DNA of 64,000 nt from Actinomycetes bacterium (GTDB taxonomy: Bacteria; Actinomycetota; Coriobacteriia; WRKU01; WQUG01), in NCBI GenBank assembly GCA_031272275.1, contig JAISUC010000003.1, forward strand, positions 92,214 through 156,213. The letters are read 5' to 3'. Below, one piece after another: positions 1-62,805 of the stretch. The position numbers and the translations under genes were made by a program. The first letter of the stretch is position 1. Each line of letters begins with the position of its first letter. The notes under the pieces are model-generated. The model was given only the letters and a program-made list of their open reading frames with translations. It was not told where the DNA came from and searched no databases.

Positions 1-734
1 GCGATGGTTCCGTTTGCCAGAAACGCCACCGTGTCCGCGATGTGTTTGGCAAAGGTCATCTCGTGGGTTGCCATCACAATGGTGGCGCCGTCTTTTTTCA
101 GGTCGCTGACCAGATCCAGCACCTCGCCCACCAACTGCGGGTCCAGCGCGCTGGTGATTTCATCTAACAGCAGCAGCTTGGGGCTGTTCACGATGGCGCG
201 CGCGATGGCGACGCGTTGTTGTTGTCCACCGGACAGCTGATCGGGGTACGCCTTTGCCTTGTCGGCGATACCGATGCGTTCCAACACCGCCAGTCCCGCG
301 GCCTCTGCCACGTCGCGTGGCTGTTTCAGCACCTTGCGCCCTGCCAGTGTCACGTTTGCCAACACCGTCATATGCGGAAACAGGTTGTAGTGCTGAAACA
401 CCACGCCGATTTGCGCGCGTATCGCATCCGCATCGGCGCGGGGATCCGAAATATCGTCGCCGTCCAGAAAAATCTGGCCGTCGTCTATCTGTTCCAACAG
501 ATTGATGGTTTTCAGTAGCGTCGATTTTCCGCTGCCGGACGCGCCGATCAGACACACGACCTCGTGTTCTGCGACATCCAGGTCGATACCGCGCAGCACC
601 GGGGTTGCACCGAACGATTTATGTATATTACGCAATTGCAGGACGGGTTGGGACGCGACGACGCGCGGGGACGTGCTCCCCCGTGTGGTTTCCATCGCAC
701 GCGTGCCGGACACGCTGCCCGCTACGCCTAGCAT
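1..734 (-). CDS. Amino-acid ABC transporter ATP-binding protein (C-terminal end runs off the window)
   Basis: Reverse-strand translation from the ATG at 734 gives Walker A GASGSGKST, ABC signature LSGGQQQRVAIARA and Walker B LLLLDE. The start abuts the stop of the upstream permease (735). It is absent from the ORF track because no stop lies in the window. Plus-strand ORFs 4..240 and 216..518 are its antisense shadows. Confidence 0.85.
   Translation of the reverse strand, partial: MLGVAGSVSGTRAMETTRGSTSPRVVASQPVLQLRNIHKSFGATPVLRGIDLDVAEHEVVCLIGASGSGKSTLLKTINLLEQIDDGQIFLDGDDISDPRADADAIRAQIGVVFQHYNLFPHMTVLANVTLAGRKVLKQPRDVAEAAGLAVLERIGIADKAKAYPDQLSGGQQQRVAIARAIVNSPKLLLLDEITSALDPQLVGEVLDLVSDLKKDGATIVMATHEMTFAKHIADTVAFLANGTI
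667..682 (+). repeat. Motif variant GGGGACGTGCTCCCCC inside the 5' end of the ABC ATPase gene
   Basis: T-to-G variant of the core. On the coding (minus) strand it is read as G-S-T-S-P, in the non-conserved N-terminal extension before the Walker A region. Confidence 0.8.
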
Positions 735-1688
735 CTAGACCACCCCCTGCGATTCTTCGCGTGCGCGGCGGCGATCCGAATACCAGTCGGTCAGGCGGAT
801 GAACGGCCAGCTCATGACGACGAACATCAGACCTGCGACCAGGTACGGCGTGAAATTAAAGGTATGCGCCGTTTCGATTTGTGCGGCGCGGACCGCGTCT
901 TTGATGCCCAGAACGCTGACCAGGCCGACGTCTTTTTGCAGCGAGACGAAGTCGTTCATCAGCGGCGGGATGACCTTGCGCAGCGCCTGGGGCAGCACCA
1001 CCAGTCGTAGCGTCTGCCCGTAGCTCAGGCCCAGGCTGCGTGCGGCGGCGCGCTGGGAGGGATGCACGGTTTGGATGCCTGCGCGGATGACTTCTGCGAC
1101 GTAGGCCGAATAGCTCAGTATCAGCGCGATGGTACCCAACAGGCTGGCGTCGATACGCCCGAACAGCCCCAAGCCCGGGACGCCGAACCCAATCAGATAC
1201 AGCACGATAATCAGCGGCAGTCCGCGAAAGAAATCGGTATAGGCGGCCGCCAGAAAACGCAGCGGGAAAAAGACCGGGGAACGCAGCGTGCGCATGACCG
1301 CGATGGCTGTTGCCAGCACCGCCACACCCAGCACGGAAAAGAACAGGATGCGCAGGTTCATCAACAGCCCCTTTCCCACTAGGGGCAGGGCGTCGACGAA
1401 GTGCTTCGGGCTGAAAAAGGCTTCTTGGACTTTGTCCCAACCGGACGAATAGTTCAAAACCAGCACGATCGCGACAAAGAACACAATCGTGCTGACAACC
1501 GAAATGGCCACGCTGCGTCCGGTCTGACGCCGCCTGAACCGGCGACGCCCCAGCTCGATGTCGCTGATCGGTGCATCCGCCGGGAGCCCTGTCGGCGGCA
1601 GTTCTACCGGCGGTTCAGCCGAGACCGCATCCGCCGGGCGTTCTGCGGGCGGTTCAGTCTGTTGCTCTGTCGGTGCCGGCGGTGTCAA
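735..1688 (-). CDS. Amino-acid ABC transporter permease (His/Glu/Gln/Arg-type) with a Pro/Glu-rich N-terminal extension
   Basis: 317-aa ORF with multiple TM segments and the EAA-like loop region (SQRAAARSLGLSYGQTLRLVVLPQALR). It sits between the binding-protein and ATPase genes. The true start within the Pro-rich N-terminus is uncertain. Confidence 0.85.
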   Translation of the reverse strand: MTPPAPTEQQTEPPAERPADAVSAEPPVELPPTGLPADAPISDIELGRRRFRRRQTGRSVAISVVSTIVFFVAIVLVLNYSSGWDKVQEAFFSPKHFVDALPLVGKGLLMNLRILFFSVLGVAVLATAIAVMRTLRSPVFFPLRFLAAAYTDFFRGLPLIIVLYLIGFGVPGLGLFGRIDASLLGTIALILSYSAYVAEVIRAGIQTVHPSQRAAARSLGLSYGQTLRLVVLPQALRKVIPPLMNDFVSLQKDVGLVSVLGIKDAVRAAQIETAHTFNFTPYLVAGLMFVVMSWPFIRLTDWYSDRRRAREESQGVV

Positions 1689-1763
1689 ACGTTTCCCTCG
1701 CGTTGTCGTCCGGGCGCAGAACAGCGCATCGCCTGCGCCCGGAATACAAAATCTGTGCCCGCG

Positions 1764-2642
1764 CTATTTCAGAATCACGGCGTCGGCATTTGCAGCCAGC
1801 CACTGTTCTGCCAGCTGGCTCAGCACGCTTTCTGCGCGCAGCTCGTCGACGGCGGCACTGACCGCATCGGTCAGCGGGCTGTCTTTCGCCAGCAGGATGC
1901 CCAGCTCGTCTCCGCCCTCGGTGCCGTCGATGATACCGATGATTTTGCCGTCGTCCAACTGGGCTGCCGTCGCATAATACGCCGTCGGGACGTCCAGCAC
2001 CACCGCGTCGATCTGGCCGCTGTTCAGCGCCTGAATCGCGGCGTCGTTGTCGTTATACGGGTTCACGCTGTCGGCGAACTTCTCTTCGGCGACGCGCAGG
2101 CTGGTCGTACCCGACGCGGCGCCTATAATCGCGCCCTCCAGCTCTGCCAGCGTCTTTGCCCCCGCATACGCATTGTCGCTGTTGGTGACCAGCGCCTGGC
2201 TGGTGATGTAATACGGACTGGAAAAATCAACGGCCTGCTTGCGCTCGTCGGTGATGGAAAACTGCTGGATATTCAGGTCGAAATCCTTCGGCCCCGGTGC
2301 GATGGCAGCCTCGAACTGCGACCGAGTCCACACCACATCCTCTTTCGCGAACCCCAGCTTTTCTGCGACCGCATAAATGACCGCAGGCTCGAATCCCTCG
2401 CCCGTCTCGGGCTTGTCGTCGATGACCCAGGGATAATACGCCGGCTCGCCGGTTGCGACCGTCAGCTTGCCCGGCACCAAAGTCAACTGCGTGATGTCGG
2501 CAATCCCCCCTTGCGTTTCCGCTGTTTCGGTGGCCTCTGGCTCGGTCGTGTCTGCGACCTCGGCCTTTTTGCATCCGACCACCGCAATCGCCCCGGCAAC
2601 CAATGCCACTACCAGCAGCAACACCCATGCTTTCTTGAACAT
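1764..2642 (-). CDS. Amino-acid ABC transporter substrate-binding lipoprotein
   Basis: Signal peptide plus lipobox (MFKKAWVLLLVVALVAGAIAVVGC). The body resembles a family-3 solute-binding protein. A strong GAGGAGG RBS precedes the ATG. It is first in the minus-strand SBP-permease-ATPase operon. Confidence 0.85.
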   Translation of the reverse strand: MFKKAWVLLLVVALVAGAIAVVGCKKAEVADTTEPEATETAETQGGIADITQLTLVPGKLTVATGEPAYYPWVIDDKPETGEGFEPAVIYAVAEKLGFAKEDVVWTRSQFEAAIAPGPKDFDLNIQQFSITDERKQAVDFSSPYYITSQALVTNSDNAYAGAKTLAELEGAIIGAASGTTSLRVAEEKFADSVNPYNDNDAAIQALNSGQIDAVVLDVPTAYYATAAQLDDGKIIGIIDGTEGGDELGILLAKDSPLTDAVSAAVDELRAESVLSQLAEQWLAANADAVILK

Positions 2643-2724: not shown

Positions 2725-2859
2725 GCAACAACGGCACAGGCGGGCTCGGGGCAGCGGGGGCAGCACAGGCGGGGGAGTACGTCCCGCACATCGCACACCC
2801 CGCAACCGCGCGCAGATAGACGCGCGCGCCGGGACGCACTCCCCCATGTGCCTTGCGCT
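2725..2859. repeat. Composite ~135-bp intergenic repeat, copy 1
   Basis: Near-identical to 5974..6117. It contains CACAGGCGG units, then GGGGGAGTACGTCCC (2771..2785) and the imperfect inverted arm GGGACGCACTCCCCC (2831..2845), separated by a GC-rich loop with its own GCGCGC hairpin. Confidence 0.9.
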
Positions 2860-2986
2860 GCAATAAGCCGGTACACATGGCGCGCCGGAGTTTATAGGGT
2901 TTATGGGCGCAGAGCAACACCGACCCGGGCGGGCTCGATGCCCACCCGGTTCGGATGTCACGATTAATAGAGCTGACAGCTTTGCT

Positions 2987-3964
2987 CTACGTGGCAGGCG
3001 CTTGCGATACTTCGGTATCGCTCACCTTGCCGCTGCCAAACTTGGAAACCACCCATTTCGTAATAAACGGGGCCGAAAATGAAGTCAGTACACACCCCAA
3101 TGCCATTTGTGCTGTGGCAGTTTGTGCATAGGGAGCGAACTGCGGCATAATCTCAGCGATAATACCGGGTACAGCTGCCGAAATGCCAGCTATCGAGCAA
3201 AATGCCACGCCGGCATATCCCGGACGGCGAATAATGAACTTGTCCGTCGCAAAAAACAGCGGGACGTTGATCACCAGGAAAATCACCGCTATCAGCAATC
3301 CCGAAGGTCCTGCCTTGACCGCGTTGACCAGATTGATATTCGACCCGAAGCAAAAGCCCAGAAACACCAGGCAAATCGGAGTCCCCGGTGCCATCAACTT
3401 CGCTATGGCCGCATCCAGATTCCCCAAAATCATCCCGATAATGAACGGAGCCAATACTGCCACGATACTCAACCAATCGAAACCACCTCCGCTGGAAATA
3501 TTCAGTATCAGGATGGGCAGCGCGGGCACTGCGACAATGTTCAACAAGCCGAATGCCGCCTCGTCGACATTGTCACCGAATTGCTGAACCAAGGCCATGT
3601 AGACCCCGGGGTTACAGCTGGACATGGCAATTACAAACGCCATGGCCGACACACCCAGAGCACCTTTTTCCCCAAAAATCCCAAACACAATGAGCGACGC
3701 CGCAAAGCCGATTATTATCTTTGCGACGCACAGAATACCGCCGCGTTTAATGGCCATACCTATTTGGTTCAGTTTGAGTTGTGAACCCGCAATAAACAGT
3801 ATGACCCCGACGATGGTCATGGTACCGGCTGACGTGAAAATACCCGAAGTGGCACTGCCGATTTGCAGTATCTGCGGCGCAACCGTATTGATGATGGCGG
3901 TAATCAACATCGGGATGATCATCAGCCCACCCGGAACTTTACCGACATACTTCATGATTTTCAT
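2987..3964 (-). CDS. 2-keto-3-deoxygluconate permease (KdgT)-family transporter
   Basis: About 10-TM protein starting MKIMKYVGKVPGGLMIIPML. I recognise it as KdgT-like from overall sequence character. A GGAGG lies 9 nt upstream of the ATG at 3964. The track ORF start at 4063 is an upstream extension. Confidence 0.7.
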   Translation of the reverse strand: MKIMKYVGKVPGGLMIIPMLITAIINTVAPQILQIGSATSGIFTSAGTMTIVGVILFIAGSQLKLNQIGMAIKRGGILCVAKIIIGFAASLIVFGIFGEKGALGVSAMAFVIAMSSCNPGVYMALVQQFGDNVDEAAFGLLNIVAVPALPILILNISSGGGFDWLSIVAVLAPFIIGMILGNLDAAIAKLMAPGTPICLVFLGFCFGSNINLVNAVKAGPSGLLIAVIFLVINVPLFFATDKFIIRRPGYAGVAFCSIAGISAAVPGIIAEIMPQFAPYAQTATAQMALGCVLTSFSAPFITKWVVSKFGSGKVSDTEVSQAPAT

Positions 3965-4087
3965 GTTGCAATTCCTCCTCTCCCGAAAAGTGGGCACCTG
4001 CACTGCAGTCTGCACGACAACCTGCACCGACACAGAAGCGCTACCTGCACCAACGCACAGCACAGATGCCTTGGACAGAAACTGCTC

Positions 4088-5056
4088 TTACTTCACGCCG
4101 AACAACTTACGTGCGTTACCGGCAAAGATTTCCTCTTGCACAGGTCCGATGACCGGGTGCGCGGCATAGTATTCCTTCATCTCTTTGCACAGCGCGGTCG
4201 CGACAGGTTCGGGCGTAAAGGGATAATCGGAGGCATACATCAGGTGATCTGCCGGTGCACAGTGCAACAAGATGTCACTGTTGGGATTGGCGTTTCCGGC
4301 ATTGTCGAAATACAAACGCTCGAAAATGGCGTCAACATCCACCTCGATCTCGATTCCCCTTCTGGCCAACATCCCGGCGATCATGCCGATGCGGCTGTAG
4401 ATGTTCGGCAAAAATGAACCGTTATGCGGTACCACCAGCTTGAAGTTCGGGTACCGACTGAACACGCCGTTGAAAATCATATTCAGCACAGCGCGGGTCG
4501 AATCAGCCAAAAACTCATACAGCGGTACAATCCAAGCAGAAAACACCCGTTCATTTACCGGCCAGGGCTTTGCCGGATGCATGATTACGGTCAGACCACG
4601 TTCGCTCGCCAGTTCGAACAGCGGATCCAGCGTGGGATCTCCCATATACAAGCCGCGGCTGTTCGTGGCGACCTTGATTGTCGTCGCATCCAGTTCATCC
4701 AGAGCATACAGTGCCTCTTCCATCGCCAGATCCACATTCGGGTGCGGTAAGGTTGCGGCCCACCCGAATCGATCCGGCAGCTTACGCTTCAGCTCCGCCG
4801 ACTGCTCATTAAACGACCGGCAGATCTCGGCACAGCGCTGATCGTTGTGATAATGCGGATGCGGGGATGCCAGCGTCAGCAGCGACCACTGAATGCCGGC
4901 ACGATCCATGTAATCCAAGTGTTTTTCCGGGGTCCAGTCGGTAACCATCGGAAAGCCGTCCTCGGTGAAAAAGTTGTTGCGCACCTCCTCCAGGTAATCG
5001 GGCCAAACCGCATGGCATTGCAAATCGTACATCGGACCATCATAGATTTCAGGCAT
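4088..5056 (-). CDS. Amidohydrolase-2 family metal-dependent hydrolase/decarboxylase (ACMSD / aryl-acid decarboxylase-like)
   Basis: 322 aa. The TIM-barrel amidohydrolase pattern includes an N-terminal H-x-H-like DLQCHAVWP, a central HPAKP, HNGSFLP and a C-terminal ASDYPF (metal-binding Asp). An AGGAGAG RBS is present. Confidence 0.7.
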   Translation of the reverse strand: MPEIYDGPMYDLQCHAVWPDYLEEVRNNFFTEDGFPMVTDWTPEKHLDYMDRAGIQWSLLTLASPHPHYHNDQRCAEICRSFNEQSAELKRKLPDRFGWAATLPHPNVDLAMEEALYALDELDATTIKVATNSRGLYMGDPTLDPLFELASERGLTVIMHPAKPWPVNERVFSAWIVPLYEFLADSTRAVLNMIFNGVFSRYPNFKLVVPHNGSFLPNIYSRIGMIAGMLARRGIEIEVDVDAIFERLYFDNAGNANPNSDILLHCAPADHLMYASDYPFTPEPVATALCKEMKEYYAAHPVIGPVQEEIFAGNARKLFGVK

Positions 5057-5225
5057 GTCATCTCTCCTTTCCGCAGCACTAGCGTGCCGTCAGACGTTTG
5101 GGTTCATCTGATTTCATTAAAGAATCGGGATGCGTGACATTCAAGCATCAGTGTTGCAGGTTCTGTTCGATACGAGACACCGACGAACAAAACTGTCCTA
5201 TATCGGACACATTTCAGTAAATCGG

Positions 5226-5840
5226 TTACTTTTGACGTTCAGAAGCAAAGCAAACAGATGCCAAGCCCAGATTTTTCAGCACACAGCCACAGGTGATGGC
5301 GACCAATTCTCGTGCAGCCTCTTGGGGAGTGCGTCCCTCGCCGTAATTCAAAAAGTTCTCCATGAGCCCCAGGTGCGCAGATACCACATAAACTGCCAAG
5401 TTATGTGGATTAATGGGCACCACCAAACGCTCACGATGGTACTCAAATAGCCCCTGGTAATAATCGTAGCCCTGCTGCCGTGCCAGGGGGTAAAAATTAG
5501 CGATGCCGTTTTCGCTCATCAGCAGACGGTATTTGTTGCGGTGCTTCTCTACATTTTCAAAATAGGAAGTATAAAACTCCATGGCACCGACAGGCTCAAT
5601 CAGGCGATTGTAATCCCAGGTCGGTCGAACGAATTTCTTTACGTAAATTCCGACAATTCGCTCAATCAGATCCGGCATATCCAGATAGTGCTTATAGAAG
5701 GTGGATCGTCCTATTAAAGCTGTCTGCGTTATGTCGGTTACCGTCACATTGTAGGCATTCTTGCGTTCAAGCAGAGTGAAAAAAGCGCTCTCGATCGCCG
5801 CGAGCGTCTTTTGCACGCGCAAATCATGTTTCCCACTCAT
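5226..5840 (-). CDS. TetR-family transcriptional regulator
   Basis: The N-terminal HTH region (KTLAAIESAFFTLLERKNAYNVTVTDITQTALIGRSTFYKHY) is typical of TetR_N. It is 204 aa and sits directly upstream of the amidohydrolase and permease. Confidence 0.8.
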   Translation of the reverse strand: MSGKHDLRVQKTLAAIESAFFTLLERKNAYNVTVTDITQTALIGRSTFYKHYLDMPDLIERIVGIYVKKFVRPTWDYNRLIEPVGAMEFYTSYFENVEKHRNKYRLLMSENGIANFYPLARQQGYDYYQGLFEYHRERLVVPINPHNLAVYVVSAHLGLMENFLNYGEGRTPQEAARELVAITCGCVLKNLGLASVCFASERQK

Positions 5841-5973
5841 GATCTCCCGCCTTCTCTGGTAATCGAATAGTGACGAGACGCACTTAGATTTTAGGCGTTA
5901 CCCGATACCTTTGTAAGGTTTCCTGACAAAGCTGAACAAAAAACGGGCAACTGTGCACGAACCTGACCGGTCT

Positions 5974-6117
5974 GCAACAACGGCACAGGCGGGCACGGGG
6001 CAGCGGGGGCAGCACAGGCGGACACAGGCGGGGGAGTACGTCCCGCACATCGCACACCCCGCAACCGCGCACAGATAGACGCGCGCGCCGGGACGCACTC
6101 CCCCATGTGCCTGCGCT
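5974..6117. repeat. Composite ~135-bp intergenic repeat, copy 2 (one extra CACAGGCGG-containing unit)
   Basis: Same orientation as 2725..2859. Arms are at 6030..6044 (GGGGGAGTACGTCCC) and 6090..6104 (GGGACGCACTCCCCC). It carries an 11-bp internal duplication relative to copy 1. Confidence 0.9.
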
Positions 6118-7941: not shown

Positions 7942-9264
7942 CTATCCTTTTCGTTCGATGATGTGCAGATTCTCCAGCACCAGTCGCGCAATCTGCCGGG
8001 CGGCGGGTATGTGCGAGAGTGCGACATAGCGTTCCAAAAACTGTTGTTGTTCCGCCGTCGGTACCGTCACCGCCGACATCCGTGCGCACAACTCGCGTGC
8101 GTCTGCGCACGCCGCGTCCGGCATCTCTGCGCGCGGGTCCACGTTCAGGCCCCGCTCGCGCACGTAGTCGTCGATGTCGAACACGTAAAACCACAGCGGC
8201 TTGCCCGCGACGGCGGCCTCGAAAGCCACGGCGGAATAATCGGTCACGACGTGATCTGCCAACACCAACAAATCCAAGGTGTCAATCGGCGGGTTGACGT
8301 GCACGTGTGCGTGGCGTGTCACGGCGGGGGAGTACGTCCCGGACCCGGTTGCGACGCCCGCGGGCCGTGCATCAGACGCGTAGGTGGGGGATGACTCCCC
8401 CACATCCGGGACAGCCGCCGTGTGTCGGGCACGTTCAGTGACGCGGTCGTCGCTGCGAAAATGCGTCTTTACCACCAGAGTGTAGTCGTGTTCGGCACAG
8501 GCAGCGGCCAGTTCGTCCAGCGCCTGCAGCCAGCGTTCGTAGGCCGCATCCGTATCGCGAAAGGTCGGGGCATAGAACACCAGCGGGCGGCCCCGAAACA
8601 GTGCCGGGTGTGCCGCCATCAGGTGGTCGATGCGGTTCAGGTCGGGTGCGCGCAGCACATCACAGCGCGGCAGCGCCAGCGGACGGATGCGGGCGCGCGG
8701 GACGTGAAAGGCGTGGCTGAAGGTGACGATCGAGGCCCTGCCGCCGCACAGCAGGTTCGTATAGTTCGCGTGCATGCGCAGCGCCTCCGCCAGTGCGCGG
8801 GGGCGTCCGCCCGGGGTGTCCAGCGCCTGCCAGCTGAAACGTTTGATGCCACCCAGCGCGTGCCAGCACTGCAGGACATACAGGCTGCTGCGCTGCGGAA
8901 ACCAGCTGACGGCGACCGAATAGCCGTCCAGGATGACTGCGCGAGCCGACGCGATGGCCCACAGTTCCGCGACCGTTTTGGTGAAATGGCCCAGAAAGCG
9001 TTTGCGGCAGGTCGCGTCGCTGCAACACAGTGTCTGGATTTTCAGGCTGCGGTCCTTGGCTGCCAGTTCCGCTTTCAGCAGCACAAAATCAACCGGCAGG
9101 TGGTCACTTTGACGCGAAAGAAAGACGACCTTGTCGGAAGGTCGTCTGACTAGTTTGATGGCTCCGTAGAATACGACGGCAAAGGGACGTATGCAACGGA
9201 TGATGAAAGCGGTAAAGCCCATACCCGAATTCCCGGTCGACGCGCGTCCTGTGGCAAAAGGCAC
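7942..9264 (-). CDS. CDP-glycerol glycerophosphotransferase (TagB/TagF) family protein with an internal insertion
   Basis: Family motifs [19 protein letters not shown] and [12 protein letters not shown] are present. It is 440 aa and carries a ~35-40-aa extra segment relative to paralogs in this window. Confidence 0.75.
8326..8340 (-). repeat. 15-mer motif copy (GGGACGTACTCCCCC on the minus strand), intragenic
   Basis: Exact match inside the TagF-like CDS. It is read as G-T-Y-S-P in the gene frame. A second hairpin, GGGGGATGACTCCCCC, lies at 8386..8401. Confidence 0.9.
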
Positions 9265-9283
9265 AGGCGCGCATCAACTGCGC

Positions 9284-10644: not shown

Positions 10645-10676
10645 TACGCACAGCCGGCGTAACGGGGATGCGGTGC

Positions 10677-10691
10677 GGGACGTACTCCCCC
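10677..10691 (+). repeat. 15-mer motif copy GGGACGTACTCCCCC, intergenic
   Basis: Exact match between yjbQ-like and the AIM24-family gene, followed by TGTGTG. Confidence 0.9.
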
Positions 10692-10759
10692 TGTGTGTTT
10701 ATAATTGAGCGGAGCCGCACAGAATCCGGGGAAATCCGGACCGAAAGAGAGGGGTTAGC

Positions 10760-17843: not shown

Positions 17844-17860
17844 GGGGGACGTGCTCCCCC
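17844..17860. repeat. Motif variant GGGGGACGTGCTCCCCC (6-bp stem hairpin), intergenic
   Basis: Lies between the pncB stop and the NYN gene start. It carries the same T-to-G variant as the copy at 667..682. Confidence 0.8.
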
Positions 17861-24818: not shown

Positions 24819-24842
24819 GGCATAAAGAGGGGGAGTAACACG

Positions 24843-38547: not shown

Positions 38548-40023
38548 ATGTCGATTGAAAGGCGGGGAACTGCGGCGGTGGTCGTTACGATGGATAAACA
38601 ACGCAAAGAAACCATTCTGTGGCTGGTGTCTTGCGTGCTGGTTTCTGTGGCGACATTGTTTGCGGGGCGTTATCTGTACTTTCTGCATGGATTACCCCGT
38701 CTTTATTTTGCGACACCGCTGTTGGTTTGTTCAGCGGTGCTGCTGTATGCGTTCCTGTTTCGTAGGCGCGGGTTCACCCTGCGTGATGAATTGCGCTCTA
38801 GTTGGCCTTTGCTTCTGCTGGCATTGATGGATGCGGGATACCTGATTATTGCGTACTGTTTGGCCAGGGTATTGCACTGGGAGAACCTCCCTTCACCACG
38901 TTGGTGGCTGAATATCCTTTTTGCTGTGCTGGCATCCTACGCGGCCTTTTTGCTGGGGCGTGTGAATATCGGTCGCAGACGTGCACTGATTGCGAACTTT
39001 TTGGCGGTGTTTCTGGCGATTTCATTGTTGTTTGGCGCATTTCAGTATCTGCAATATGCGGGTTACAGCAATCCGGTTGCAGGTGCCATCCATGTCTTAA
39101 ATGTGGGGACGGCAAAGCTCTACGGAATGTGGGAATGGAATGCTTCTGAGGTGGGGATACGAGTAGCGGGTATCAATACCGATCCTGTGGCTTTTATGTT
39201 TCCCGCGATGGTCGGTGTTGCTTGGGTTTTCGGGGTGAGTGATGTCAGGTGGCGACGCATTCTGATCGGCATACTGTCATTGGGAATCATCTTTCTCAGC
39301 GGTTCGCGTGGCGCATTGATCGTGACCGGAGTTATGTCGATTGTCTATCTGGTTCGACGGGTGGCTCAGTCGAGAAAAAAAGAATCGGTGGGCCAATCGG
39401 ACCGACGTAAATGGGTTTGGTTCGGTTTGGGCTTACTGCTGGTGATACTCGTCGCTGTGATAGTGTTTTGGGTATTCGGATCCAACGGATTGGTGCTGCG
39501 CCTGCGATCTATCGCGGATGATGTTTCACGCAACGGTGTTACTCTGACGACGATTGATACCGCCCTGTCGGGACGGTTAACGGTATGGCGACTGGCATTC
39601 CAGTCTATTGCGCAACACCCTTTCGGGACATGGCATCCCTTAGGAAACTTGTCCGGGACAACTCTGTTTGGCAGTGATATCACTTACTGGCATGCTCATA
39701 ATGACCTCTTGCAACGTTGGGTAATAGGGGGACCGCTTCTCAGTGCTGTTTTGGTGTTGATGTTCGTATGGATGTATATCCGCTGGAAACAGGATCGTCT
39801 GCATCCTGTGGCGACTGATTTCGGTCTGTACTTTTTCTTGGTTGTCGTGTTGTCAGGTTTGACCGAATCGGTCTTTTTCGACAAAGCATTCCTCGTTCTC
39901 GGCTTCTTTGTTTTGGGAATCCTTACCCAGTCCCCATGCGCAGCGGGTGCAGTCGACGAGGACAGACGGGACGTACTCCCCCCCATGAAGGAAGATGTCA
40001 CTGATGTCTACGGGACGACCTAA
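38548..40023 (+). CDS. O-antigen ligase / polymerase (Wzy_C, WaaL-like) family membrane protein
   Basis: ~12 TM with an SGSRGALIV motif and a large external loop before the last TMs. The start is uncertain (38548 or 38590). The C-terminal tail contains the 15-mer motif. Confidence 0.7.
   Translation: MSIERRGTAAVVVTMDKQRKETILWLVSCVLVSVATLFAGRYLYFLHGLPRLYFATPLLVCSAVLLYAFLFRRRGFTLRDELRSSWPLLLLALMDAGYLIIAYCLARVLHWENLPSPRWWLNILFAVLASYAAFLLGRVNIGRRRALIANFLAVFLAISLLFGAFQYLQYAGYSNPVAGAIHVLNVGTAKLYGMWEWNASEVGIRVAGINTDPVAFMFPAMVGVAWVFGVSDVRWRRILIGILSLGIIFLSGSRGALIVTGVMSIVYLVRRVAQSRKKESVGQSDRRKWVWFGLGLLLVILVAVIVFWVFGSNGLVLRLRSIADDVSRNGVTLTTIDTALSGRLTVWRLAFQSIAQHPFGTWHPLGNLSGTTLFGSDITYWHAHNDLLQRWVIGGPLLSAVLVLMFVWMYIRWKQDRLHPVATDFGLYFFLVVVLSGLTESVFFDKAFLVLGFFVLGILTQSPCAAGAVDEDRRDVLPPMKEDVTDVYGTT
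39968..39984 (+). repeat. 15-mer motif copy GGGACGTACTCCCCCCC, intragenic (3' tail of the ligase-like gene)
   Basis: Exact core, read as R-D-V-L-P-P in the gene frame. Confidence 0.9.
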
Positions 40024-41493: not shown

Positions 41494-41498
41494 TCGCG

Positions 41499-53438: not shown

Positions 53439-54748
53439 AAGTACTGCTGATTGGTTCCGGCGGGCGCGAGCACGCATTGTGCCGAAAGCTGGCGGCGTCT
53501 GATTTGGTCGAGACGGTTTACGTTGCCCCGGGAAACGGCGGGACGGCGCTGGAGCCTGCTGCAGTCAATGTCGATCTGGGCAAATGGGCGATACGCAATG
53601 AACTGGATTCACAGGTTGACCCGGCTGTTGATTTTGCACGGGCACATGGGATAGAGCTGGCTGTAATCGGACCCGAGGCTCCCTTGGTGGACGGTCTGGC
53701 GGATCGTTTGCGGGCGGCAGGAATTGCAAGCTTTGGACCGGGGGCGGCAGGCGCCCGGCTGGAGGGCTCGAAACAGTTTTCCAAGGATTTTATGGCGCGC
53801 AACGCCATCCCGACGGCAGACTATCGGGTGTTTACTGTCGATACACAGGCAGAGGCATATGCCTATCTGGATGAAATCGGGGCACCGGTGGTGATCAAGG
53901 CCGACGGTCTGGCAGCCGGCAAGGGCGTGACCGTTGCCGCAACGGTCGAGGCTGCACGCGCGGCTTTGGCCGAGTGTTTCGACGGTCGGTTCGGTAGTGC
54001 CGGCGACACGGTGGTTATCGAGGAATGTTTGGTGGGACCTGAGTGTTCGATGATTGCTTTTGTGGACGGGCCGACGGTGCTGTGTTTGGCGCCCTCGCAG
54101 GATCATAAACGTGTGGGCGAGGGGGATACCGGACCGAATACGGGTGGCATGGGAGTATACTCCCCCGTGCCCTTGGTCACCGAGCAACAGTTGGCGTCCA
54201 TGCAAGAGATCATGCAGCAGGTCGCGGCGGCTTTGGTCGCGGAGGGCATCGAGTATCGCGGCGTGTTGTACGGCGGGTTTATGTTGACGTCTGCCGGACC
54301 GAAGGTGTTGGAATTCAACGTGCGATTCGGTGACCCCGAGACTCAGGTGATTTTGCCGCGACTGGAAAGCGACCTGGCGCAGTTGCTGTTGGCGACCGCG
54401 ACCGGGCAGCTGGCGGGCGTGTCCTTGGAAAACCGGGATGCCGTGGCGGTCAGCGTCGTGTTGGCGAGCGCCGGATACCCCGGCGACTATGAAAAGGGCA
54501 AGGTCATCACCGGGATTGAGGCGGCTGAAGCAATCGACGGCGTCGAGGTCTATCATGCAGGGACCGCACTGGTTACCGAGGGTGTCGGTCACGAACAGCT
54601 GGTGACGGCAGGCGGCCGCGTCTTGAACGTGACGGCGATGGCGGCCGATTTCCTCGACGCGATTCAGGCGGCCTATGCGGCGGTGGACCGGATTCATTTT
54701 GACGGTGCGTTTTGCCGGCGCGACATCGCACAGCGCGCTGTAAGCTAA
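53435..54748 (+). CDS. purD: Phosphoribosylamine--glycine ligase
   Basis: [19 protein letters not shown] overlap with the purA stop. The track ORF start at 53270 lies inside purA. Confidence 0.93.
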
Positions 54749-54900: not shown

Positions 54901-57834
54901 ATGAAACCGAAGAGCACCGCAGACCAGCTCGACCAGGTCGAGCAAGCCGAACTGACCGAATCTGACGCAATGCTCGAGCCGGATGTGTCTGTTACGGCGA
55001 ACGCGCCGGATACCCCGAACTCATCGGCCGATCAACTCGACGCAGGCAGGAACACCACAACGGTTCCGAGTACCCGCGATGCTGCTGTAGCGGACGCGCC
55101 GACGGAAAACTCCCCCGATTCCCCCTATAACATCGACGCGGAACAGTTGGCGCAAAGCCTAGGCGTGGATCCTGCGCGCGGATTGTCGCGTGACGAGGCC
55201 GCGCGCCGTCTGGCACAGTTCGGGCAGAACAAGCTGAACGAGGCGCCGCCGACCCCCAAATGGAAGATTTTCCTGAACCAGTACCGCGACTTTATGATTT
55301 ACGTGCTGTTCGGCGCGGTGCTGATTGCCGCCATCGAGGGCCAGGTCATCGAGGCCGCGGCCATTCTGGTCATCTTGTTGCTGAACGGCATCCTAGGCTT
55401 TGTGCAGGAATACCGCGCCGAACAGGCGCTGGAGGCGCTGAAACAAATGGCGGCACCGACCGCGGCCGTGCTGCGCGACGGGCGCGAACAACAAATCCCG
55501 ACGGCTGACATCGTGGTGGGCGACATCGTCTTGCTGGAAGCCGGAAACACCGTCCCCGCCGACGGCAGGTTGTTGCAGGTGGGCGCGTTGCGCACCGTGG
55601 AATCCGCCCTGACCGGCGAATCGGAAGCCGTCCGCAAACAGACCGAAGTACTGATAGGCGAACACACCGCGCTGGGCGACCAAAGCAACATGGTGTTCGG
55701 CGGCACGACCGCCAGCGCCGGCCGCGGGACCTTTGTGGTGACCGCAACCGGCCAGGCGACCGAAATGGGCAAAATCGCGACGCTGCTGGCAGACACCGAC
55801 GAGGGCGAAACGCCGCTGCAAATCGAACTGGACCGCGTCGGCAAACGTATCGGAATGGTGATTTTGATCATCGCCGCCATCGTGTTCATCGAGGAAATCG
55901 TGATAGCCGCCGCCGGCGAGACCGGCACGTTGGGCCAGATGCTGGCGCACCCGACATTCCGCGCGGCCATAACCGAGGGCCTGTTGGTCGCCATCGCGCT
56001 GGCCGTCGCCGCCATCCCCGAGGGGCTGCCCGCCGTGGTCACCGTCAGCTTGTCGCTGGGCGTGCGCCGCATGGCCGAACGCCACGCCATCATGAAACGC
56101 CTGCACGCAGTCGAAACGCTGGGCTCGACGACCTTCATATGCAGCGACAAAACCGGCACGCTGACCCTGAACCAGATGACGGTTCGGCGCATCCTGCTGG
56201 GCACGCAGGTGTTGACGGTCGACGGTTCGCAGGTGACGGCTGCGGATGGGGGGGAGTACGTCCCGGATCGCGATTTGACCGCACTGTTGTCTGTCGCTGC
56301 CGGCTGCAATGACGCCCACTATACCGCGGACGGTCAGCTGGTGGGCGACCCCACCGAAACGGCGCTGATCGCCTGCGTGCATGACTTGGCACCCGACCTG
56401 GAGCTACCCCCACGCGTGGCGGAAATCCCCTTTGATTCCGACCGCAAACGTATGTCGACCACGCACGCAGAGGACAGCGGCAAATATGTGACCTTTGTGA
56501 AAGGTGGGATGGATACCACGCTGCCGCTCTGTACGCATGCGCTGGTTGCCGGCACGATTGTGCCGCTGGATGATGCGCTGCGCCAGACGCTCAACGACGC
56601 CAACGCCGACTTTGCCGCGCAAGGTTTCCGGACGCTGGCGTTCGCCCTGCGCGAGCGCGATGCGCTGCCGGTCGATGACAGCGATATCGACGACATCGAG
56701 ACCGATCTGCTGTATCTGGGGATCATGGCCGAACAGGACCCCGCACGCCCAGAGGTACCCGCCGCCGTGCGCACCGCCCTGGATGCCGGCATCCAGGTTG
56801 CGATGGTGACCGGCGACCATGCCCTGACGGCACGTGCGATTGCAACCGAAATCGGTATCCTGCAGCCCGGACAGCAGGTCGTAACCGGTGCCGACATCGA
56901 GAATATGTCCGACGCGGAACTGGCAGCGGCAGCCCCCGACATCCGCGTCTATGCGCGGGTCAACCCTGAACACAAGATTCGCATCGTCAGCGCCCTGAAA
57001 TCGCGCGGGCATATCGTCGCGATGACCGGGGACGGCGTAAACGACGCGCCTGCTCTGAAACGGGCCGATATCGGGGTCGCCATGGGGGTTGTGGGAACCG
57101 ACGTCACGCGCGAGGCGGCCGATATGGTACTGGCGGACGATAACTTTTCGACCATCGTGGGCGCGGTCGAAGAGGGCCGCACGGTCTTTGCGAACCTGAA
57201 AAAAGTCATCCTGTTCCTGTTGTCCTGCAACATCAGCGAGGTGCTGATAGTTGCGCTGACCAGCTTTTTCAGTGCGGCGTCCGGTGCCACGCTGTTGCCG
57301 CTGCAGCTGTTGTGGATTAACCTGATTACCGACGGGATGCCCGCGCTGGCGCTGGGGGTCGACCCTTCAGAACACGACGTGATGGCACGCCGCCCACGGA
57401 ATGCCGGCAAGCCCATACTGACGCTGCCGCGCTGGACGCAGATTATCCTGCAGGGTGCTGTCTTGTCGGCAGCCGGCTTGCTGGTTGCGTACTGGTTGGG
57501 ACCTTTGACCGGCGCCGATGCGCCGGCGGTGCGCACAATGCTGTTTGCGTGTCTGGTGCTGTCCCAGCTGCTGCACACCTTTGCCTATCGCAGCGAAACC
57601 AAATCGGTCTTTTCGCGCGAGGTGTTTCGCAACAAATGGTTGATCGGGGCCGTGCTGTTAAGCTTTGCCCTGCAGTTCCTGGTGATTTACCTGCCGGGCC
57701 TGCGACATATCTTCAGCCTGAGCCCGCTGAACGGGGTCGAATGGGCGACAGTCGTTGCCGTGGCCTTCGTCAGCATGGTGGTCAACGACGGCATCGGCCT
57801 GATTATCGACCGCCTGCAACGGGGCAAGGAATAA
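54901..57834 (+). CDS. P-type cation-transporting ATPase (P2-type, Ca2+/Mg2+-like) with a ~85-aa low-complexity N-terminal extension
   Basis: Phosphorylation motif CSDKTGTLT, TGES, and hinge TGDGVNDAPAL. 977 aa, 10 TM. Confidence 0.9.
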   Translation: MKPKSTADQLDQVEQAELTESDAMLEPDVSVTANAPDTPNSSADQLDAGRNTTTVPSTRDAAVADAPTENSPDSPYNIDAEQLAQSLGVDPARGLSRDEAARRLAQFGQNKLNEAPPTPKWKIFLNQYRDFMIYVLFGAVLIAAIEGQVIEAAAILVILLLNGILGFVQEYRAEQALEALKQMAAPTAAVLRDGREQQIPTADIVVGDIVLLEAGNTVPADGRLLQVGALRTVESALTGESEAVRKQTEVLIGEHTALGDQSNMVFGGTTASAGRGTFVVTATGQATEMGKIATLLADTDEGETPLQIELDRVGKRIGMVILIIAAIVFIEEIVIAAAGETGTLGQMLAHPTFRAAITEGLLVAIALAVAAIPEGLPAVVTVSLSLGVRRMAERHAIMKRLHAVETLGSTTFICSDKTGTLTLNQMTVRRILLGTQVLTVDGSQVTAADGGEYVPDRDLTALLSVAAGCNDAHYTADGQLVGDPTETALIACVHDLAPDLELPPRVAEIPFDSDRKRMSTTHAEDSGKYVTFVKGGMDTTLPLCTHALVAGTIVPLDDALRQTLNDANADFAAQGFRTLAFALRERDALPVDDSDIDDIETDLLYLGIMAEQDPARPEVPAAVRTALDAGIQVAMVTGDHALTARAIATEIGILQPGQQVVTGADIENMSDAELAAAAPDIRVYARVNPEHKIRIVSALKSRGHIVAMTGDGVNDAPALKRADIGVAMGVVGTDVTREAADMVLADDNFSTIVGAVEEGRTVFANLKKVILFLLSCNISEVLIVALTSFFSAASGATLLPLQLLWINLITDGMPALALGVDPSEHDVMARRPRNAGKPILTLPRWTQIILQGAVLSAAGLLVAYWLGPLTGADAPAVRTMLFACLVLSQLLHTFAYRSETKSVFSREVFRNKWLIGAVLLSFALQFLVIYLPGLRHIFSLSPLNGVEWATVVAVAFVSMVVNDGIGLIIDRLQRGKE
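56248..56264 (-). repeat. 15-mer motif copy (complement orientation), intragenic in the P-type ATPase
   Basis: GGGGGGGAGTACGTCCC on the plus strand, read as G-G-E-Y-V-P in the gene frame, in the variable start of the nucleotide-binding domain. Confidence 0.9.
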
Positions 57835-57869: not shown

Positions 57870-60065
57870 TCAGTCCCGGTACTGGCGACCGGTGTCGAAA
57901 TACAGACCCGTGATGTGCTCGAATGTGGGCAACCGGAACGTCGACATCGCCAAATCGGGCGCCATCGCGTAAAACACGTCGTCGATGAACAGCGACCGAT
58001 AGGGACCGGGGACATCCGGGTCGGCAAAGGTCTCGGTCACCTGCACGAACCCGTCCTCGACCGAATACGAAAACACCAGACAACTTGCCTGACCCGGCAA
58101 GCAAATATAGCCCCGCTGGCGGTCCAGCACAATCGCGTGGTGGTCGACCAGCGCGTCCGACCAATACTCGCCCTTGATGCGCAACATCGCCTGTTCGCGC
58201 ACATCAGCGGGGTCGCTGACGTCATACATCGACAGCTTCAAATCGGCGATCTCGCCGGTCTCCGGGTCCGCGTCATACCCCAGCCCGAACAGCAGCCCAT
58301 CGTCCCACATCTGCAAATAATCCGAAAAGCCCGGCATCTTTAACTCACCCACCAGCCGCAGTTTAGCCGGGTCACTCAAATCCACCGCAAACAGCGGGTC
58401 GGTGTGCTCAAAGGTCACAAAATACACGTAATCGCCCACGAACCGGCAGGAATGGAACTCCTCTCCTTTGCCCAAGCCCCCCAGCTCGTCAATGGGCCGC
58501 ATGTCCTTATCAAAAGTAAACACGCTGGTCCGAATGTCCTCATCCCCGGTCCAATCGTGCAGCGTCGCCACCGCACGCAACACGCCATCGCGCTCGTCCA
58601 TCGAAAACCGGTCCAGCACGCTGCCCAGCACCGACACCGACTTGTCGACCGTCACAACTCCGCGGTCCAGCCGAATCCGCGTGATGCGCGTCCCGTCCAC
58701 CGTATCCCCGTGATAATCCTGATCCTCATAGGTCATCAGGTACAGATTCTCGGCCGACGAATAAAAATCGCTCCCGCCGCCCAAAATCGACGCCTGCGAC
58801 GCCAGCTCGGTCTGCCGCGCGCAATCAATCGCCGCCACCACGGCATACCGCGTGTCCTCGGCCTCTTTCATCACCGTAATCATATTCGGAGCCTGCAGGG
58901 TTTTCTTGTCATCATGCAGCACAAACGGAACAAAACCCTCGGGATGCGCCGGGTCCAACCGGCTGTAATCATATATTCCATAGTCACATACCAGATACAA
59001 AATCCGGTCGATCATTCGCGAGCTGACAAAGGTCCCCGACAGCGAATAATCGGTGATTTTCGCCGGTTTCGTCGGATCCGACACGTCAAAAATATCCACG
59101 GTCACAGACGGGGGAGTACGTCCCTCCGACTCGTCATTTCCCACGGCATCTTCGGAATCGCCACCGTATCCGTCATATATCACGTCATCGTACAGGGTGC
59201 CTGAGGCCGAAACCACGCCAGACCCGCGCAGCGCCACCAGCCGATTCCCGGTCACATACATCTCGAAATACCCTGCACCGTCGGCGCCCGGCAGCGCCAG
59301 CTGGGTTGCCTCCGCCCGTTCATCGCTCGTGGCGTCCGTCGCAACAGACATATTTTCGCTTTCTGCCGCATCCTCGTCGGCAGATGCGTTTTCGTCCAAA
59401 GGTTGCACATCGCCCTTGCTCATCTCATCGGGTTGCAGGCGCGCCACCACCGTCGGATGTCCGTCGTTTGCCGCCAGAATCGTCAACTGTGAATCCCCCA
59501 GCGCATAGATGTACTGCCCGTCGGTTGTGACGATGTCGCCTTCGGACACGCCGTCCACCTGGATGTTGGTCAGGGTATAGTTCGGGTCGGTTTGGGTCGC
59601 CAGTGCCGTGGCTCCGTTCCCACCGGCAGCAGCAGCGCCGACCTCGGCTCCGGCCGGGGCGGATGCCGCGGTACGCGGGTCCATGCGCGGCAGCGTGGAC
59701 GATTCTTCGCGTTCCTCGGCCCGTTTCGCCTTTTCGAACACCTCATAGATCTTGCCGTAATCACCGGGTGCGACGACCAGCTGGACCGAGCCCCCTGTAC
59801 CCAACAGGCGCACGGTCAGCGGACGCACAAAAACGACGACAATCGCCAGCACGACCACCACGGCGGTGAACACCGGCATAAAAATATTGATTTTCCTGCG
59901 GGTCGTGTGAATGTCGACCTCGCGATAGCGCGGCACCACGCGGCCCTCTTCGTCGGCAGCGGCTGCAGCGTCTGCCGCGGCTGCCGCCACGCGCAGCCGT
60001 TCCTGCAATTCATCCGATGGAACGTCAGCGCGCAATCCCGCGCGATAGGCGTCACGAAAGTTCAT
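57870..60065 (-). CDS. Membrane-anchored beta-propeller-domain protein (candidate anti-sigma / sensor partner of the adjacent ECF sigma)
   Basis: A short cytoplasmic N-terminus and one TM ([20 protein letters not shown]) precede a large extracytoplasmic domain. That domain includes [38 protein letters not shown], typical of the bacterial Beta_propel family. The ATG at 60065 overlaps the sigma gene stop by 14 nt. Confidence 0.75.
59110..59124 (-). repeat. 15-mer motif copy (complement orientation), intragenic in the beta-propeller gene
   Basis: GGGGGAGTACGTCCC on the plus strand. On the coding (minus) strand it is read as G-R-T-P-P, a third reading frame. Confidence 0.9.
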
Positions 60066-60684
60066 CTGCAAAATCCTTTCCCAGCGCAGCACGCAGTGCC
60101 GCACGTCCGCGGTGCAGATGAGAACGTATCGTCGACTTTCGCCAGCCGGTCAGCACGGCGATGCGCTCGATACTCAGGTCTTCGAAATAGAACAGGTGAA
60201 TGCACAGGCGTTGTTTGGGGGGCAGCTCGTTTACGGCGTCGCGCACGCGTGCCCCGTCGGCTGCGGCACAGGCAAGCTCTGCCGGGTCCGCGCCACTGAC
60301 CGCTGCTGTCACCGCCACGGTCGCTGCGGCATGTCCGCCGCCGCCCGCATCGAATGTCACAGCACCCAAACCGTGCCGGGCCGTCGCATGCGTCGGGACG
60401 TACTCCTCCGATTGTGCCGACATATCAACCGGCGTTTCGTGTCGACGCGACGCGCGCGTCCAATAGCTGCGGCAGCGATTGATCGTCGTGCGCAACAGCC
60501 AGGCCTTTGCGTGTTCGGCGTCGTTGAAATGCGGGTTTGCGGCAATCATGCGCAGGAACACATCCTGCGTAATGTCTTCTGCGTCAGCCACGCGTCCGCC
60601 GCTGGTAACCAATGCCAATCGATACACCATCGCATTATGTGCCTCGACCAAGCCGGCGAGGCTTACCTGTTCAGCTCCTTTCAT
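60052..60684 (-). CDS. ECF-type RNA polymerase sigma-70 factor with an unusually long region 2-4 linker
   Basis: Region 2 ([14 protein letters not shown]...[10 protein letters not shown]) and region 4 ([28 protein letters not shown]) are separated by a ~55-60-aa Ala/Gly-rich segment. Confidence 0.85.
60395..60409 (+). repeat. Motif variant GGGACGTACTCCTCC inside the ECF sigma linker
   Basis: 12-nt core is exact. On the coding (minus) strand it is read as E-E-Y-V-P. Confidence 0.85.
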
Positions 60685-62049: not shown

Positions 62050-62601
62050 ATGAAGCTGGCCTTGCATACCTGTTGTGCGCCGTGTTTGATCGGGTGCATC
62101 GATTGGTTTCTGGGGTCGGACGGCACAACCGTGGACGGTGAACCGTTTGCGGTTGATGACGTAAGGTGCGTCTATTACAACCCGAATATAGGGCCGGCCG
62201 ACGAATACGCGCGTCGTCGCGACACCTTCGCGGATTACGCGATCGGACGCGGGCTGGATTGGGTGGAGTTGGAATACGAACCGGATGCGTGGTGGCGTGC
62301 CATCGGTGACGACCGGCGATTCGGCGTGCGCTGCGCGGGATGCTATCGTGTGCGCTTCGAACGCGTGGCCGACTGGGCGGCGGCAGCCGGCTACGACACC
62401 CTGGCGACCACGCTGGCGATATCGCCCTGGCAGAATCTGGATGCCATCAACGCCACCGGGCGCGCTGCCGCCGCCACGCGGGGCTTGCGTTGGCTGGCCT
62501 GCGACCTGCGTCCGCTGTATCGCGCCGGCCAGCAACGCGCGCGCGAAATGGGCATCTACCGCCAAAAGTACTGCGGCTGCGAACTCTCCCTGAACGAGTG
62601 A
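62050..62601 (+). CDS. queH: Epoxyqueuosine reductase QueH (DUF208)
   Basis: LHTCCAPC at the N-terminus, CAGCYRVRFE, and YCGC near the C-terminus. The start codon directly follows the folD stop. Confidence 0.8.
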   Translation: MKLALHTCCAPCLIGCIDWFLGSDGTTVDGEPFAVDDVRCVYYNPNIGPADEYARRRDTFADYAIGRGLDWVELEYEPDAWWRAIGDDRRFGVRCAGCYRVRFERVADWAAAAGYDTLATTLAISPWQNLDAINATGRAAAATRGLRWLACDLRPLYRAGQQRAREMGIYRQKYCGCELSLNE

Positions 62602-62789
62602 TGCTCTGCGTGCTGTATGCGCAATGGCTGTAACCGTTGAAACAACCTCAGGTATATCCACCCTCATTGCGAGCGCGCGGTAGCGCGCGCGGCAATGCAT
62701 GCGGCGACGTCAGTCGCCGGACAACAGGTCCCGTCACGCGGTTTTCGTGGCGGGGGCATTGTCCCCTGTGCGGGGCAGAACGTATCGTC

Positions 62790-62805
62790 GGGACGTACTC
62801 CCCCC
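62790..62805 (+). repeat. 15-mer motif copy GGGACGTACTCCCCCC, intergenic upstream of ychF
   Basis: Exact match. Its flank CGTATCGTC-motif-ATTGT resembles the flank of the 60395 copy. Confidence 0.9.

Follow-up and report, generated by a model that had tools for sequence, protein, structure and literature searches.

How does a word of some sixteen letters come to stand, often without a single mismatch, at a dozen places in 64 kb of a bacterial chromosome, between genes and inside them, and on both strands? The question is raised by a stretch of 64,000 nucleotides (nt) from an Actinomycetes bacterium of the Coriobacteriia (assembly GCA_031272275.1, contig JAISUC010000003.1, positions 92,214 to 156,213), which we call the window. 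The word is 16-23 nt long and contains an invariant block, C-GGGACGTACTCCCCC, seen when the copies are aligned in one orientation. The signal is real, it belongs to the DNA or RNA level rather than to the protein level, and it is not the product of one paralogous family. With a probability of about 0.42, we read it as a lineage-specific family of miniature, non-coding and non-autonomous repeats, similar to the REPINs of other bacteria and to miniature inverted-repeat transposable elements (MITEs), with some in-frame copies that resemble Rickettsia palindromic elements (RPEs). Much work has gone into short interspersed repeats of Proteobacteria, Rickettsia and cyanobacteria; to our knowledge, they have hardly been described in Coriobacteriia.

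Our motif counts cover the window, and some were extended to 74 kb of the same genome using a further 10 kb on its right side. These come from the Logan assembly of run SRR14710912, whose sequence is identical in the overlap, with the caveat that both agreeing assemblies may derive from the same reads. The 12-mer GGGACGTACTCC has nine exact copies, as the original prediction had counted by eye (plus strand: 10677, 39968, 60395 and 62790; minus strand: 2774, 6033, 8329, 56253 and 59113), with 0 expected. Its claim that base composition cannot account for this excess is borne out by 100 dinucleotide-preserving shuffles of the window, which yielded no copy. Allowing one mismatch gives 14 copies versus 0.21 expected, the additions being GGGACGTGCTCC at 668 and 17846, and GGGACGCACTCC at 2831, 6090 and 5326 (minus strand). 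All the copies listed earlier are real, including the variants at 667 and 17844 and the arms at 2831 and 6090, but the copy at 5326 had been overlooked. The earlier minus-strand coordinates agree with ours within 0-2 nt, an offset that exists because they were the starts of the 15-mer GGGGGAGTACGTCCC. In an unbiased k-mer count the motif is the most repeated 10-12-mer of the window by a wide margin, and a 4th-order Markov model expects only 0.1-0.7 copies of its 9-10-mers. That the signal is not real, and reflects chance, base composition, a single family of paralogs or an artefact of assembly or adapters, is effectively refuted by these figures, by the small part of the copies (4 of 14) that lies within a longer repeat, by seven open reading frames (ORFs) that keep their frame through the motif, with homologs aligning before and after it, and by the chance-level frequency of the word elsewhere.

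The anatomy of the unit is simple. A TGTG stands 0-4 nt 3' of the 15-mer in 6 of the 11 independent copies, versus a background of 1.7%, so that this part of the original prediction holds, and the upstream flank shows only a weak G/C-rich preference. Over the 74 kb the density of the full word is about 1 per 5 kb. Its copies are balanced between strands (eight plus, six minus), without the orientation skew of Chi, KOPS or Ter sites. The unit is free of stop codons in all six frames, and the seven ORFs that read through it translate it with the host protein. Intragenic copies use five of the six frames and both strands, so the earlier statement of 'every frame and both strands' is right about strands and short of one frame. 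This use of frames and strands, together with the intergenic position of half of the copies, supports the proposal of an action on nucleic acid rather than through a peptide. Five of the 12 loci are intergenic, versus an intergenic fraction of 7.8% in the window (P = 0.0014), which speaks for a repeat family. The copies are unevenly spread: they cluster at 0.7-18 kb and 56-63 kb, there is no full copy from 17.9 to 39.9 kb, which corresponds to a low-GC glycan-synthesis island (GC 0.51), and the 14 full-word copies of the 64 kb are followed by 0 in the next 10 kb. Rfam at its gathering threshold for the whole window, Rfam at a relaxed E-value for 2640-2990, and a tRNA scan gave no match, and a full-text literature search for the motif word returned two unrelated primer or gene sequences only.

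In the model we favor, the conserved end-unit would be about 23 nt long (C-GGGACGTACTCCCCC-N0-3-TGTG), and a complete element would be a pair of such units, inverted around a spacer of about 45 nt and able to form a hairpin of 87-103 nt. The pair would be the form that is copied or recombined, by means of a trans-acting activity presumably encoded outside the window, and solo units would be half-elements or copies kept independently. Inside genes, the unit encodes peptides rich in Gly, Pro, Ser and Thr; being also stop-free in six frames, it would survive there wherever a tail, linker or surface loop can accept it, as RPEs do. The pairs are likely to have side effects, namely strong RNA or single-stranded DNA hairpins where genes end and a portable stretch of homology that recombination can use. 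The mobility of the repeat, the enzyme responsible for it and any function it may have are what we infer here. The intergenic loci are the following, with gene calls made anew and checked against Logan calls and Pfam:

2764..2850, no single strand: inverted doublet, CACAGGC-GGGGGAGTACGTCCC, a 45-nt spacer and GGGACGCACTCCCCC-A-TGTG; intergenic, between the KdgT stop (2987) and the start of a substrate-binding-protein gene (2642), inside the repeat 2725-2853.
6023..6109, no single strand: second copy of this doublet, inside the repeat 5974-6112; begins 12 nt past the stop codon of TypA (6121), with the nearest 15-mer arm end 17 nt away, and lies 183 nt upstream of the TetR start (5840).
10676..10695, plus strand: solo unit CGGGACGTACTCCCCC-TGTG, intergenic; 32 nt after the stop of the UPF0047 gene (10644), ending 65 nt before the start of the AIM24 gene (10760), with a TATAAT hexamer 4 nt after the TGTG.
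17845..17860, plus strand: solo variant GGGGACGTGCTCCCCC, between the NAPRTase stop and an NYN-domain gene, which are 33 nt apart.
62789..62804, plus strand: intergenic solo unit, separated by 188 nt from the queH stop (62601) and by 93 nt from the downstream ychF start (62897), with a degenerate partner GGGGGCATTGTCCCC about 38 nt upstream.

The structural argument for an element comes from inverted pairs, which occur at three loci (2764-2850, 6023-6109 and, inside a gene described below, 8320-8422) and form hairpins of 87-103 nt. The first two share the same 45-nt spacer, with 60 nt from arm start to arm start, and their inverted repeat reaches out to CACA...TGTG. The arms, of 22-23 nt (CACAGGCGGGGGAGTACGTCCC and GGGACGCACTCCCCCATGTG), are terminal inverted repeats. 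Their spacer contains a GC hairpin of its own. On the minus strand the 2764-2850 pair folds at -73.3 kcal/mol with 16 contiguous arm pairs, one of which is a G-U that would be an A-C mismatch on the plus strand; the 8320-8422 pair folds at -56.9 kcal/mol. These energies are modestly better than those of shuffled sequences (z-scores of -1.9 and -1.7). No T-run follows the pair hairpins, and a terminator scan does not flag them.

The two intergenic doublets belong to the only longer repeat revealed by self-comparison of the window: 5974-6112 matches 2725-2853 over 139 nt with 91% identity and holds 4 of the 14 copies. The remaining loci are unrelated to each other, so that the word is not confined to one family of paralogous sequences, which would have refuted the original prediction. 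The two copies of this direct repeat flank a block (2854-5973) encoding a KdgT permease, an amidohydrolase and a TetR regulator, with a GC content of 0.52 versus 0.60-0.63 in the flanking genes, and two Logan contigs (L120 and L124) end inside the two repeats. All of this is in line with a repeat family. The block looks like an acquired cassette that was integrated at a pre-existing repeat, and its footprint is the one expected from one crossover, or else from a site-specific event at an element already in place.

We compared the host proteins of intragenic copies with orthologs to see which copies are indels, as the original prediction had suggested. The copies found within genes are:

667..687, plus strand: solo variant GGGGACGTGCTCCCCC-G-TGTG, antisense in the N-terminal tail of an amino-acid ABC ATPase (ORF 3-734, minus strand); read as GSTSP, residues 19-23.
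5323..5338, minus strand: near-copy AGGGACGCACTCCCCA, sense in the C-terminal domain of TetR, read as GRTPQ, inside the low-GC block; it may be a chance match or a decayed copy.
8320..8422, minus strand: composite hairpin element in the interdomain linker of a CDP-glycerol glycerophosphotransferase gene (7942-9264, minus strand); of its two arms, CGGGACGTACTCCCCC (8326-8341) is perfect and CCGGGACAGCCGCCGTG (8406-8422) has a deletion of 6 nt, and there is also a mini-palindrome, GGGGGATGACTCCCCC (8386-8401).
39967..39982, plus strand: sense-strand solo unit that encodes RDVLP in the C-terminal tail of a Wzy/O-antigen-ligase-like gene.
56250..56265, minus strand: solo unit, antisense in a hypervariable N-domain loop of a P-type Ca2+ ATPase (54901-57834, plus strand), read as GGEYVP.
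59103..59125, minus strand: sense-strand solo unit AGGGACGTACTCCCCC-GTC-TGTG; it falls in a variable loop of a beta-propeller (anti-sigma-like) protein, where it encodes EGRTPPSV directly before a conserved strand.
60394..60416, plus strand: antisense solo unit CGGGACGTACTCCTCC-GAT-TGTG, read as EEYVP within the linker that joins sigma2 and sigma4 in an ECF (extracytoplasmic function) sigma factor (60052-60630, minus strand).

The peptides that had been read from the intragenic copies (GTYSP, RDVLP, GRTPP, GEYVP, EEYVP and GSTSP) are correct, and the claim that copies sit in non-conserved tails, linkers and loops stands for the five genes that we checked against orthologs or solved structures. 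The clearest case for insertion is the glycerophosphotransferase, whose linker is 49 residues long versus 15 in ortholog P0123 and similarly short in the other ten orthologs. The excess of 34 residues corresponds to 102 nt in frame, and the hairpin at 8320-8422 measures 103 nt; as judged from this comparison of sequences, it is an element-sized in-frame insertion. Other copies point the same way. The ABC ATPase shows homology to solved structures from residue 29 only, leaving an N-terminal extension of 27-28 residues; the linker of the ECF sigma factor is the longest among 12 homologs; and the copy of the Wzy-like protein (residues 474-478 of 491, with the Pfam domain ending at residue 397) is likewise in a segment that exceeds its counterparts in homologs. 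Length varies anyway, however, in the tail of the ABC ATPase and in the ECF linker. Two genes tell against insertion. In the P-type ATPase the loop has 38 residues, versus 37 in the shortest ortholog with the same anchors. At the motif codons its closest relative reads GCG GGC GCC ACG GTC CCA, and comparing GGC GCC ACG GTC CCA with GGG GAG TAC GTC CCG here gives 8 of 15 identical positions and a difference in length of one codon, suggesting therefore that this copy originated in place. The beta-propeller copy likewise brings no clear change of length with respect to homologs. The suggestion that each copy is an indel thus fails in these two genes, and the idea of a micro-element that tolerates in-frame insertion is upheld by 8320-8422, with its 34-residue excess over 11 orthologs, and not by the ATPase and the beta-propeller. 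From this mixed comparison it follows that some copies came as insertions and others look made in place. As a side observation, the ECF sigma gene overlaps the start of the gene for the beta-propeller protein, a PF09826 protein of 744 residues (57870-60104, minus strand); the two are probably a sigma/anti-sigma pair, and each gene carries a copy of the motif.

The two halves of the word behave differently. The 3' half, ACTCCCCC, is enriched on its own, with 24 copies in the window versus 1.6 expected under the 4th-order Markov model, equally shared by the strands (12 and 12). It accounts for 24 of all 107 NNNCCCCC words, the next most frequent prefix having 5. The 74 kb contain 28 copies (1 per 2.6 kb), 18 of them without the 5' half, and four of the 28 fall within the 10-kb extension, where the full word has 0. 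A T four bases after the 8-mer is common to copies with and without the 5' half. That 5' half, GGGACGTAC, never occurs alone in the window. In the window, copies of the half-motif start at these positions:

Half-motif ACTCCCCC without the GGGACGT half: 14972 (plus), 17413 (minus), 22181 (minus), 24829 (minus), 35960 (minus), 42006 (plus), 44367 (minus), 46056 (plus), 46687 (minus), 47314 (minus), 52018 (plus), 54159 (plus) and 55109 (plus).

Only one of these half-motif copies is in the position of a ribosome-binding site: at 24829-24836, the complement GGGGGAGT is the ribosome-binding site of an epimerase gene, 7 nt before its ATG at 24843. The half-motif in NAPRTase goes with a length difference of at most one residue, and the one in DnaB is within a loop carrying seven additional residues. 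The copy in PurD (54159) encodes a universally conserved YSP and is not associated with an indel. In purD, too, 54152-54166 reads GGGAGTATACTCCCC, a 14-nt perfect palindrome (GGGAGTA|TACTCCC) plus one C that spans the conserved GVYSP codons and contains the half-motif. The frequency of this 8-mer recalls HIP1 (GCGATCGC) of cyanobacteria, another 8-mer, and like it ACTCCCCC is about 15-fold over-represented and found in several frames, in genes and between them, with no established function; HIP1, however, is a perfect palindrome linked to a methyltransferase site, whereas ACTCCCCC is asymmetric.

We then asked how far the word extends beyond this genome, whose genes, by the names on their homologs, belong to an uncultured member of the Coriobacteriia. 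Among 15 billion proteins, none is at least 90% identical to GroEL, TypA, DnaB, PurA, YchF or other proteins of this organism, and the nearest relatives that we found have a P-type ATPase that is 64-74% identical, hence too distant to serve as empty-site controls. Five contigs of these relatives (about 71 kb) contain 0 copies beyond three chance matches with two mismatches, and no excess of ACTCCCCC. In a scan of 185,579 genomes with a 14-mer, the matches listed were single-copy chance matches in unrelated taxa; the 15-mer plus TGTG gave six single-copy chance matches in metagenomes, so that the organism is absent from that collection, and a viral scan gave 20. The exception to single copies is one Streptomyces contig with two matches 18 nt apart. 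With chance-level matches among those listed elsewhere and no copies in the relatives, the word is therefore specific to this lineage. One contig of a relative (L121) does have a repeat of another kind upstream of its P-type ATPase: at 9252-9690 a tandem unit of about 37 nt (GGATTGGTCGCGCTCGCTGC...) is present in four copies at 37-nt spacing, plus one 308 nt upstream, and is unrelated to the motif.

Several of the observations above weigh against a mobile repeat family, beginning with the copies in the ATPase and beta-propeller genes. Seven of the 12 loci lie inside ORFs (four sense and three antisense), when repetitive extragenic palindromic sequences (REPs) are by definition extragenic. Enrichment of the 3' half alone, with a 5' half that is never alone, is not predicted by the random decay of a mobile element, and the PurD copy sits in conserved codons without an indel. 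Since one repeat contributes two of the three pairs, only two pairs are independent. The solo units are not palindromic and can form only a 4-bp GGGA/TCCC stem; seven of the eight fold no better than shuffled sequences, and we rejected for this reason the small hairpin GGGGA-N5-TCCCC that the original prediction had offered among its explanations. The sole solo copy with a significant hairpin of its own is 17845..17860, with a 7-bp stem and a z-score of -2.7. Although the sample is small, the perfect consensus is found in solo copies, while each doublet has a variant or deleted arm, the reverse of what is expected of REPINs. Solo copies share at most 19-32 nt of homology with a doublet, and none shares the pair spacer. 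Finally, no clear target-site duplication is seen at 8320-8422 or at the intergenic doublets, and there is no transposase or Y1/RAYT gene in the 74 kb read.

Comparison with described families places the word between categories. REPINs were defined from over-represented 16-mers and from doublets in inverted orientation, spaced by 71 or 110 bp, that fold into hairpins, and the singlets of REPs, which are palindromic as well as extragenic, are expected to decay (PMC3116915). The REP/REPIN-RAYT systems of Pseudomonas and Enterobacteria (PMC3116915) share with our word an over-represented, lineage-specific 16-mer, the coexistence of solo units and inverted doublets of fixed spacing, a density of the same order (about 1 per 5 kb), and a spacer that is less conserved than the arms. 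Our unit differs in that it is not a palindrome, more than half of its loci are in ORFs, and its solos are better conserved than the doublet arms. By the definition of the REP/RAYT family it falls outside, because it is non-palindromic, its loci are mostly not extragenic, its singlets are not more decayed and no RAYT gene is found in the 74 kb. With RPEs and in-frame MITEs it has in common one palindromic element of about 100 nt, in frame, in an interdomain linker and translated, and a stop-free unit. It differs from them in phylum, in consisting mostly of solo units of 16-23 nt instead of elements of 100-150 nt, in showing no clear target-site duplication, and in having two intragenic copies without change of length. 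We know of no report of RAYTs in Actinobacteria.

The main rival of a repeat family is an uptake-signal-like tag, or another self tag maintained by drive, with ACTCCCCC as its core and GGGACGTACTCCCCC as its extended form. Copies would accumulate through point mutation or short conversion patches, together with biased uptake or recombination, and the pairs would be secondary. We consider it unlikely as a whole, and slightly more doubtful in the general form of a self-recognition tag spread by molecular drive, be it uptake-signal-like or part of a new recombination- or repair-targeting system. The exact solo units with unrelated flanks, the copies made in place, the enriched half-site and the absence from the island nevertheless fit the anatomy of an uptake sequence better than that of a mobile repeat. 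The orientations are equal, as seen for the 8-mer; copies are both genic and intergenic and occupy permissive places; the word has a core and an extension; and the inverted pairs come just after gene ends. Pairs serving as terminators, permissive sites in the core genome and absence from recently acquired genes are hallmarks of the DNA uptake sequence (DUS) of Neisseria (PMC2397512). As in DUS and in the uptake signal sequence of Pasteurellaceae (PMC2397512, PMC3630211, PMC2346458), we have here a short, exact and non-palindromic word in both orientations, with a weaker extension around its core, that is missing from a compositionally foreign island. However, it is 16 nt long rather than 9-12 nt and about 2-5 times less dense than uptake sequences, which occur about once per kb, and its arms are 45 nt apart, with one pair inside an ORF, when those of DUS terminators are separated by at most 21 nt (PMC2397512) and no T-run is present here. 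The 74 kb contain no competence genes, the full word is patchy, the spacing of TGTG is variable, and the 102-nt insertion of a pair inside a gene is left unexplained. No uptake sequence is known in Actinobacteria or in any Gram-positive bacterium, which also counts against this rival.

Less probable than such a tag, to our mind, are putative binding sites of a chromosomal protein, kept singly by selection: a nucleoid-associated or organizing protein, a global regulator, or a self-marking defense or repair system. An exact 16-mer followed by a second short element, TGTG, suits a binding site, and all five intergenic loci have a copy directed at the start of a downstream gene, 39-200 nt away. 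Copies cluster at the two ends of the window, which also holds DnaA boxes and the rpsF-ssb-rplI-dnaB set, usually origin-proximal in Actinobacteria. Yet TGTG comes anywhere from 0 to 3 nt after the word, unrelated genes contain half of the loci in either orientation, and the copies are far denser than the sites of a specific regulon. Besides, the word is non-palindromic, unlike parS, NBS, SBS or matS (and no parS is present), it lacks the strand polarity of Chi, KOPS and Ter, and an element-sized insertion would again find no explanation. A role in RNA seems to us improbable: the pairs would be terminators or hairpins stabilizing 3' ends, and the solo units would act in mRNA as CUCCCCC, similar to an anti-Shine-Dalgarno, or as GGGGGAG, similar to a Shine-Dalgarno. 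Both intergenic pairs do lie just 3' of co-directional genes (TypA and KdgT), the G-U pair of the stem falls on the transcribed strand, where the other strand would have A-C, and one GGGGGAGT is a genuine ribosome-binding site. Mycobacteria do have a conserved, species-specific terminator hairpin, the TRIT of Mycobacterium tuberculosis, which is intergenic and lacks a canonical T-run, and with which our pairs share being an actinobacterial hairpin between genes; TRIT, however, is found only between genes and has no solo half-units in ORFs. The hairpin z-scores, the terminator scan that flags none of the pairs, the lack of a T-run and of an Rfam match, the unstructured solo units, the intragenic copies in both orientations, and the origin of the two supporting pairs in one repeat all argue against an RNA function. 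A modest share of our belief, somewhat above what we grant to the uptake-like tag, goes to readings that are not listed here.

Other known kinds of site were tried and rejected. For a promoter made of a GGGAC -35 and a -10 element, the distance from GGGAC to TGTG is 10-13 nt and the -10 hexamers are inconsistently placed. The ends do not match the RYYYAAC/GTTRRRY of an integron attC site, and there is no intI gene nearby. The asymmetry of the motif and its balance between strands exclude parS, Chi and KOPS, and no parS was found within three mismatches.

The window has features of interest beyond the word. The region 18725-47256 is a large gene cluster for a cell-wall glycopolymer, whose 18.7-40 kb part has a GC content of 0.51. 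Besides an ABC-2/Wzt exporter and a pyruvyl transferase, it comprises five genes of the CDP-glycerol glycerophosphotransferase family, one of them fused to LicD, and genes for rhamnose-type sugar nucleotides. A phosphonate branch comprises a phosphoenolpyruvate mutase-cytidylyltransferase fusion (40177-41493), a thiamine pyrophosphate-dependent decarboxylase (41445-42677) and a nucleotidyltransferase fused to an iron-type alcohol dehydrogenase (42775-44625). This gene content suggests a teichoic-acid-like polymer decorated with phosphonate. Perfect DnaA boxes (TTATCCACA) are found at 50629-50646, 47336-47344 and 51093-51101, and the rplI-dnaB intergenic region holds a tandem pair of them; when one mismatch is allowed, the window has 16 matches versus 8.9 expected.

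The repeat has three practical consequences: short-read assemblies break at it, as the Logan contigs show, host proteins gain peptide segments from it, and an acquired gene block seems to be bordered by it. Were the word instead a self tag, it would have no precedent among Actinobacteria or in other Gram-positive lineages, with the pairs as a secondary use, and the recognition of self-DNA by sequence through drive or uptake would extend to a new phylum. Whichever it is, the family mixes traits that usually occur apart, namely doublets similar to REPINs, an insertion similar to those of RPEs and solo units similar to uptake sequences, and it therefore tests whether these categories are distinct.

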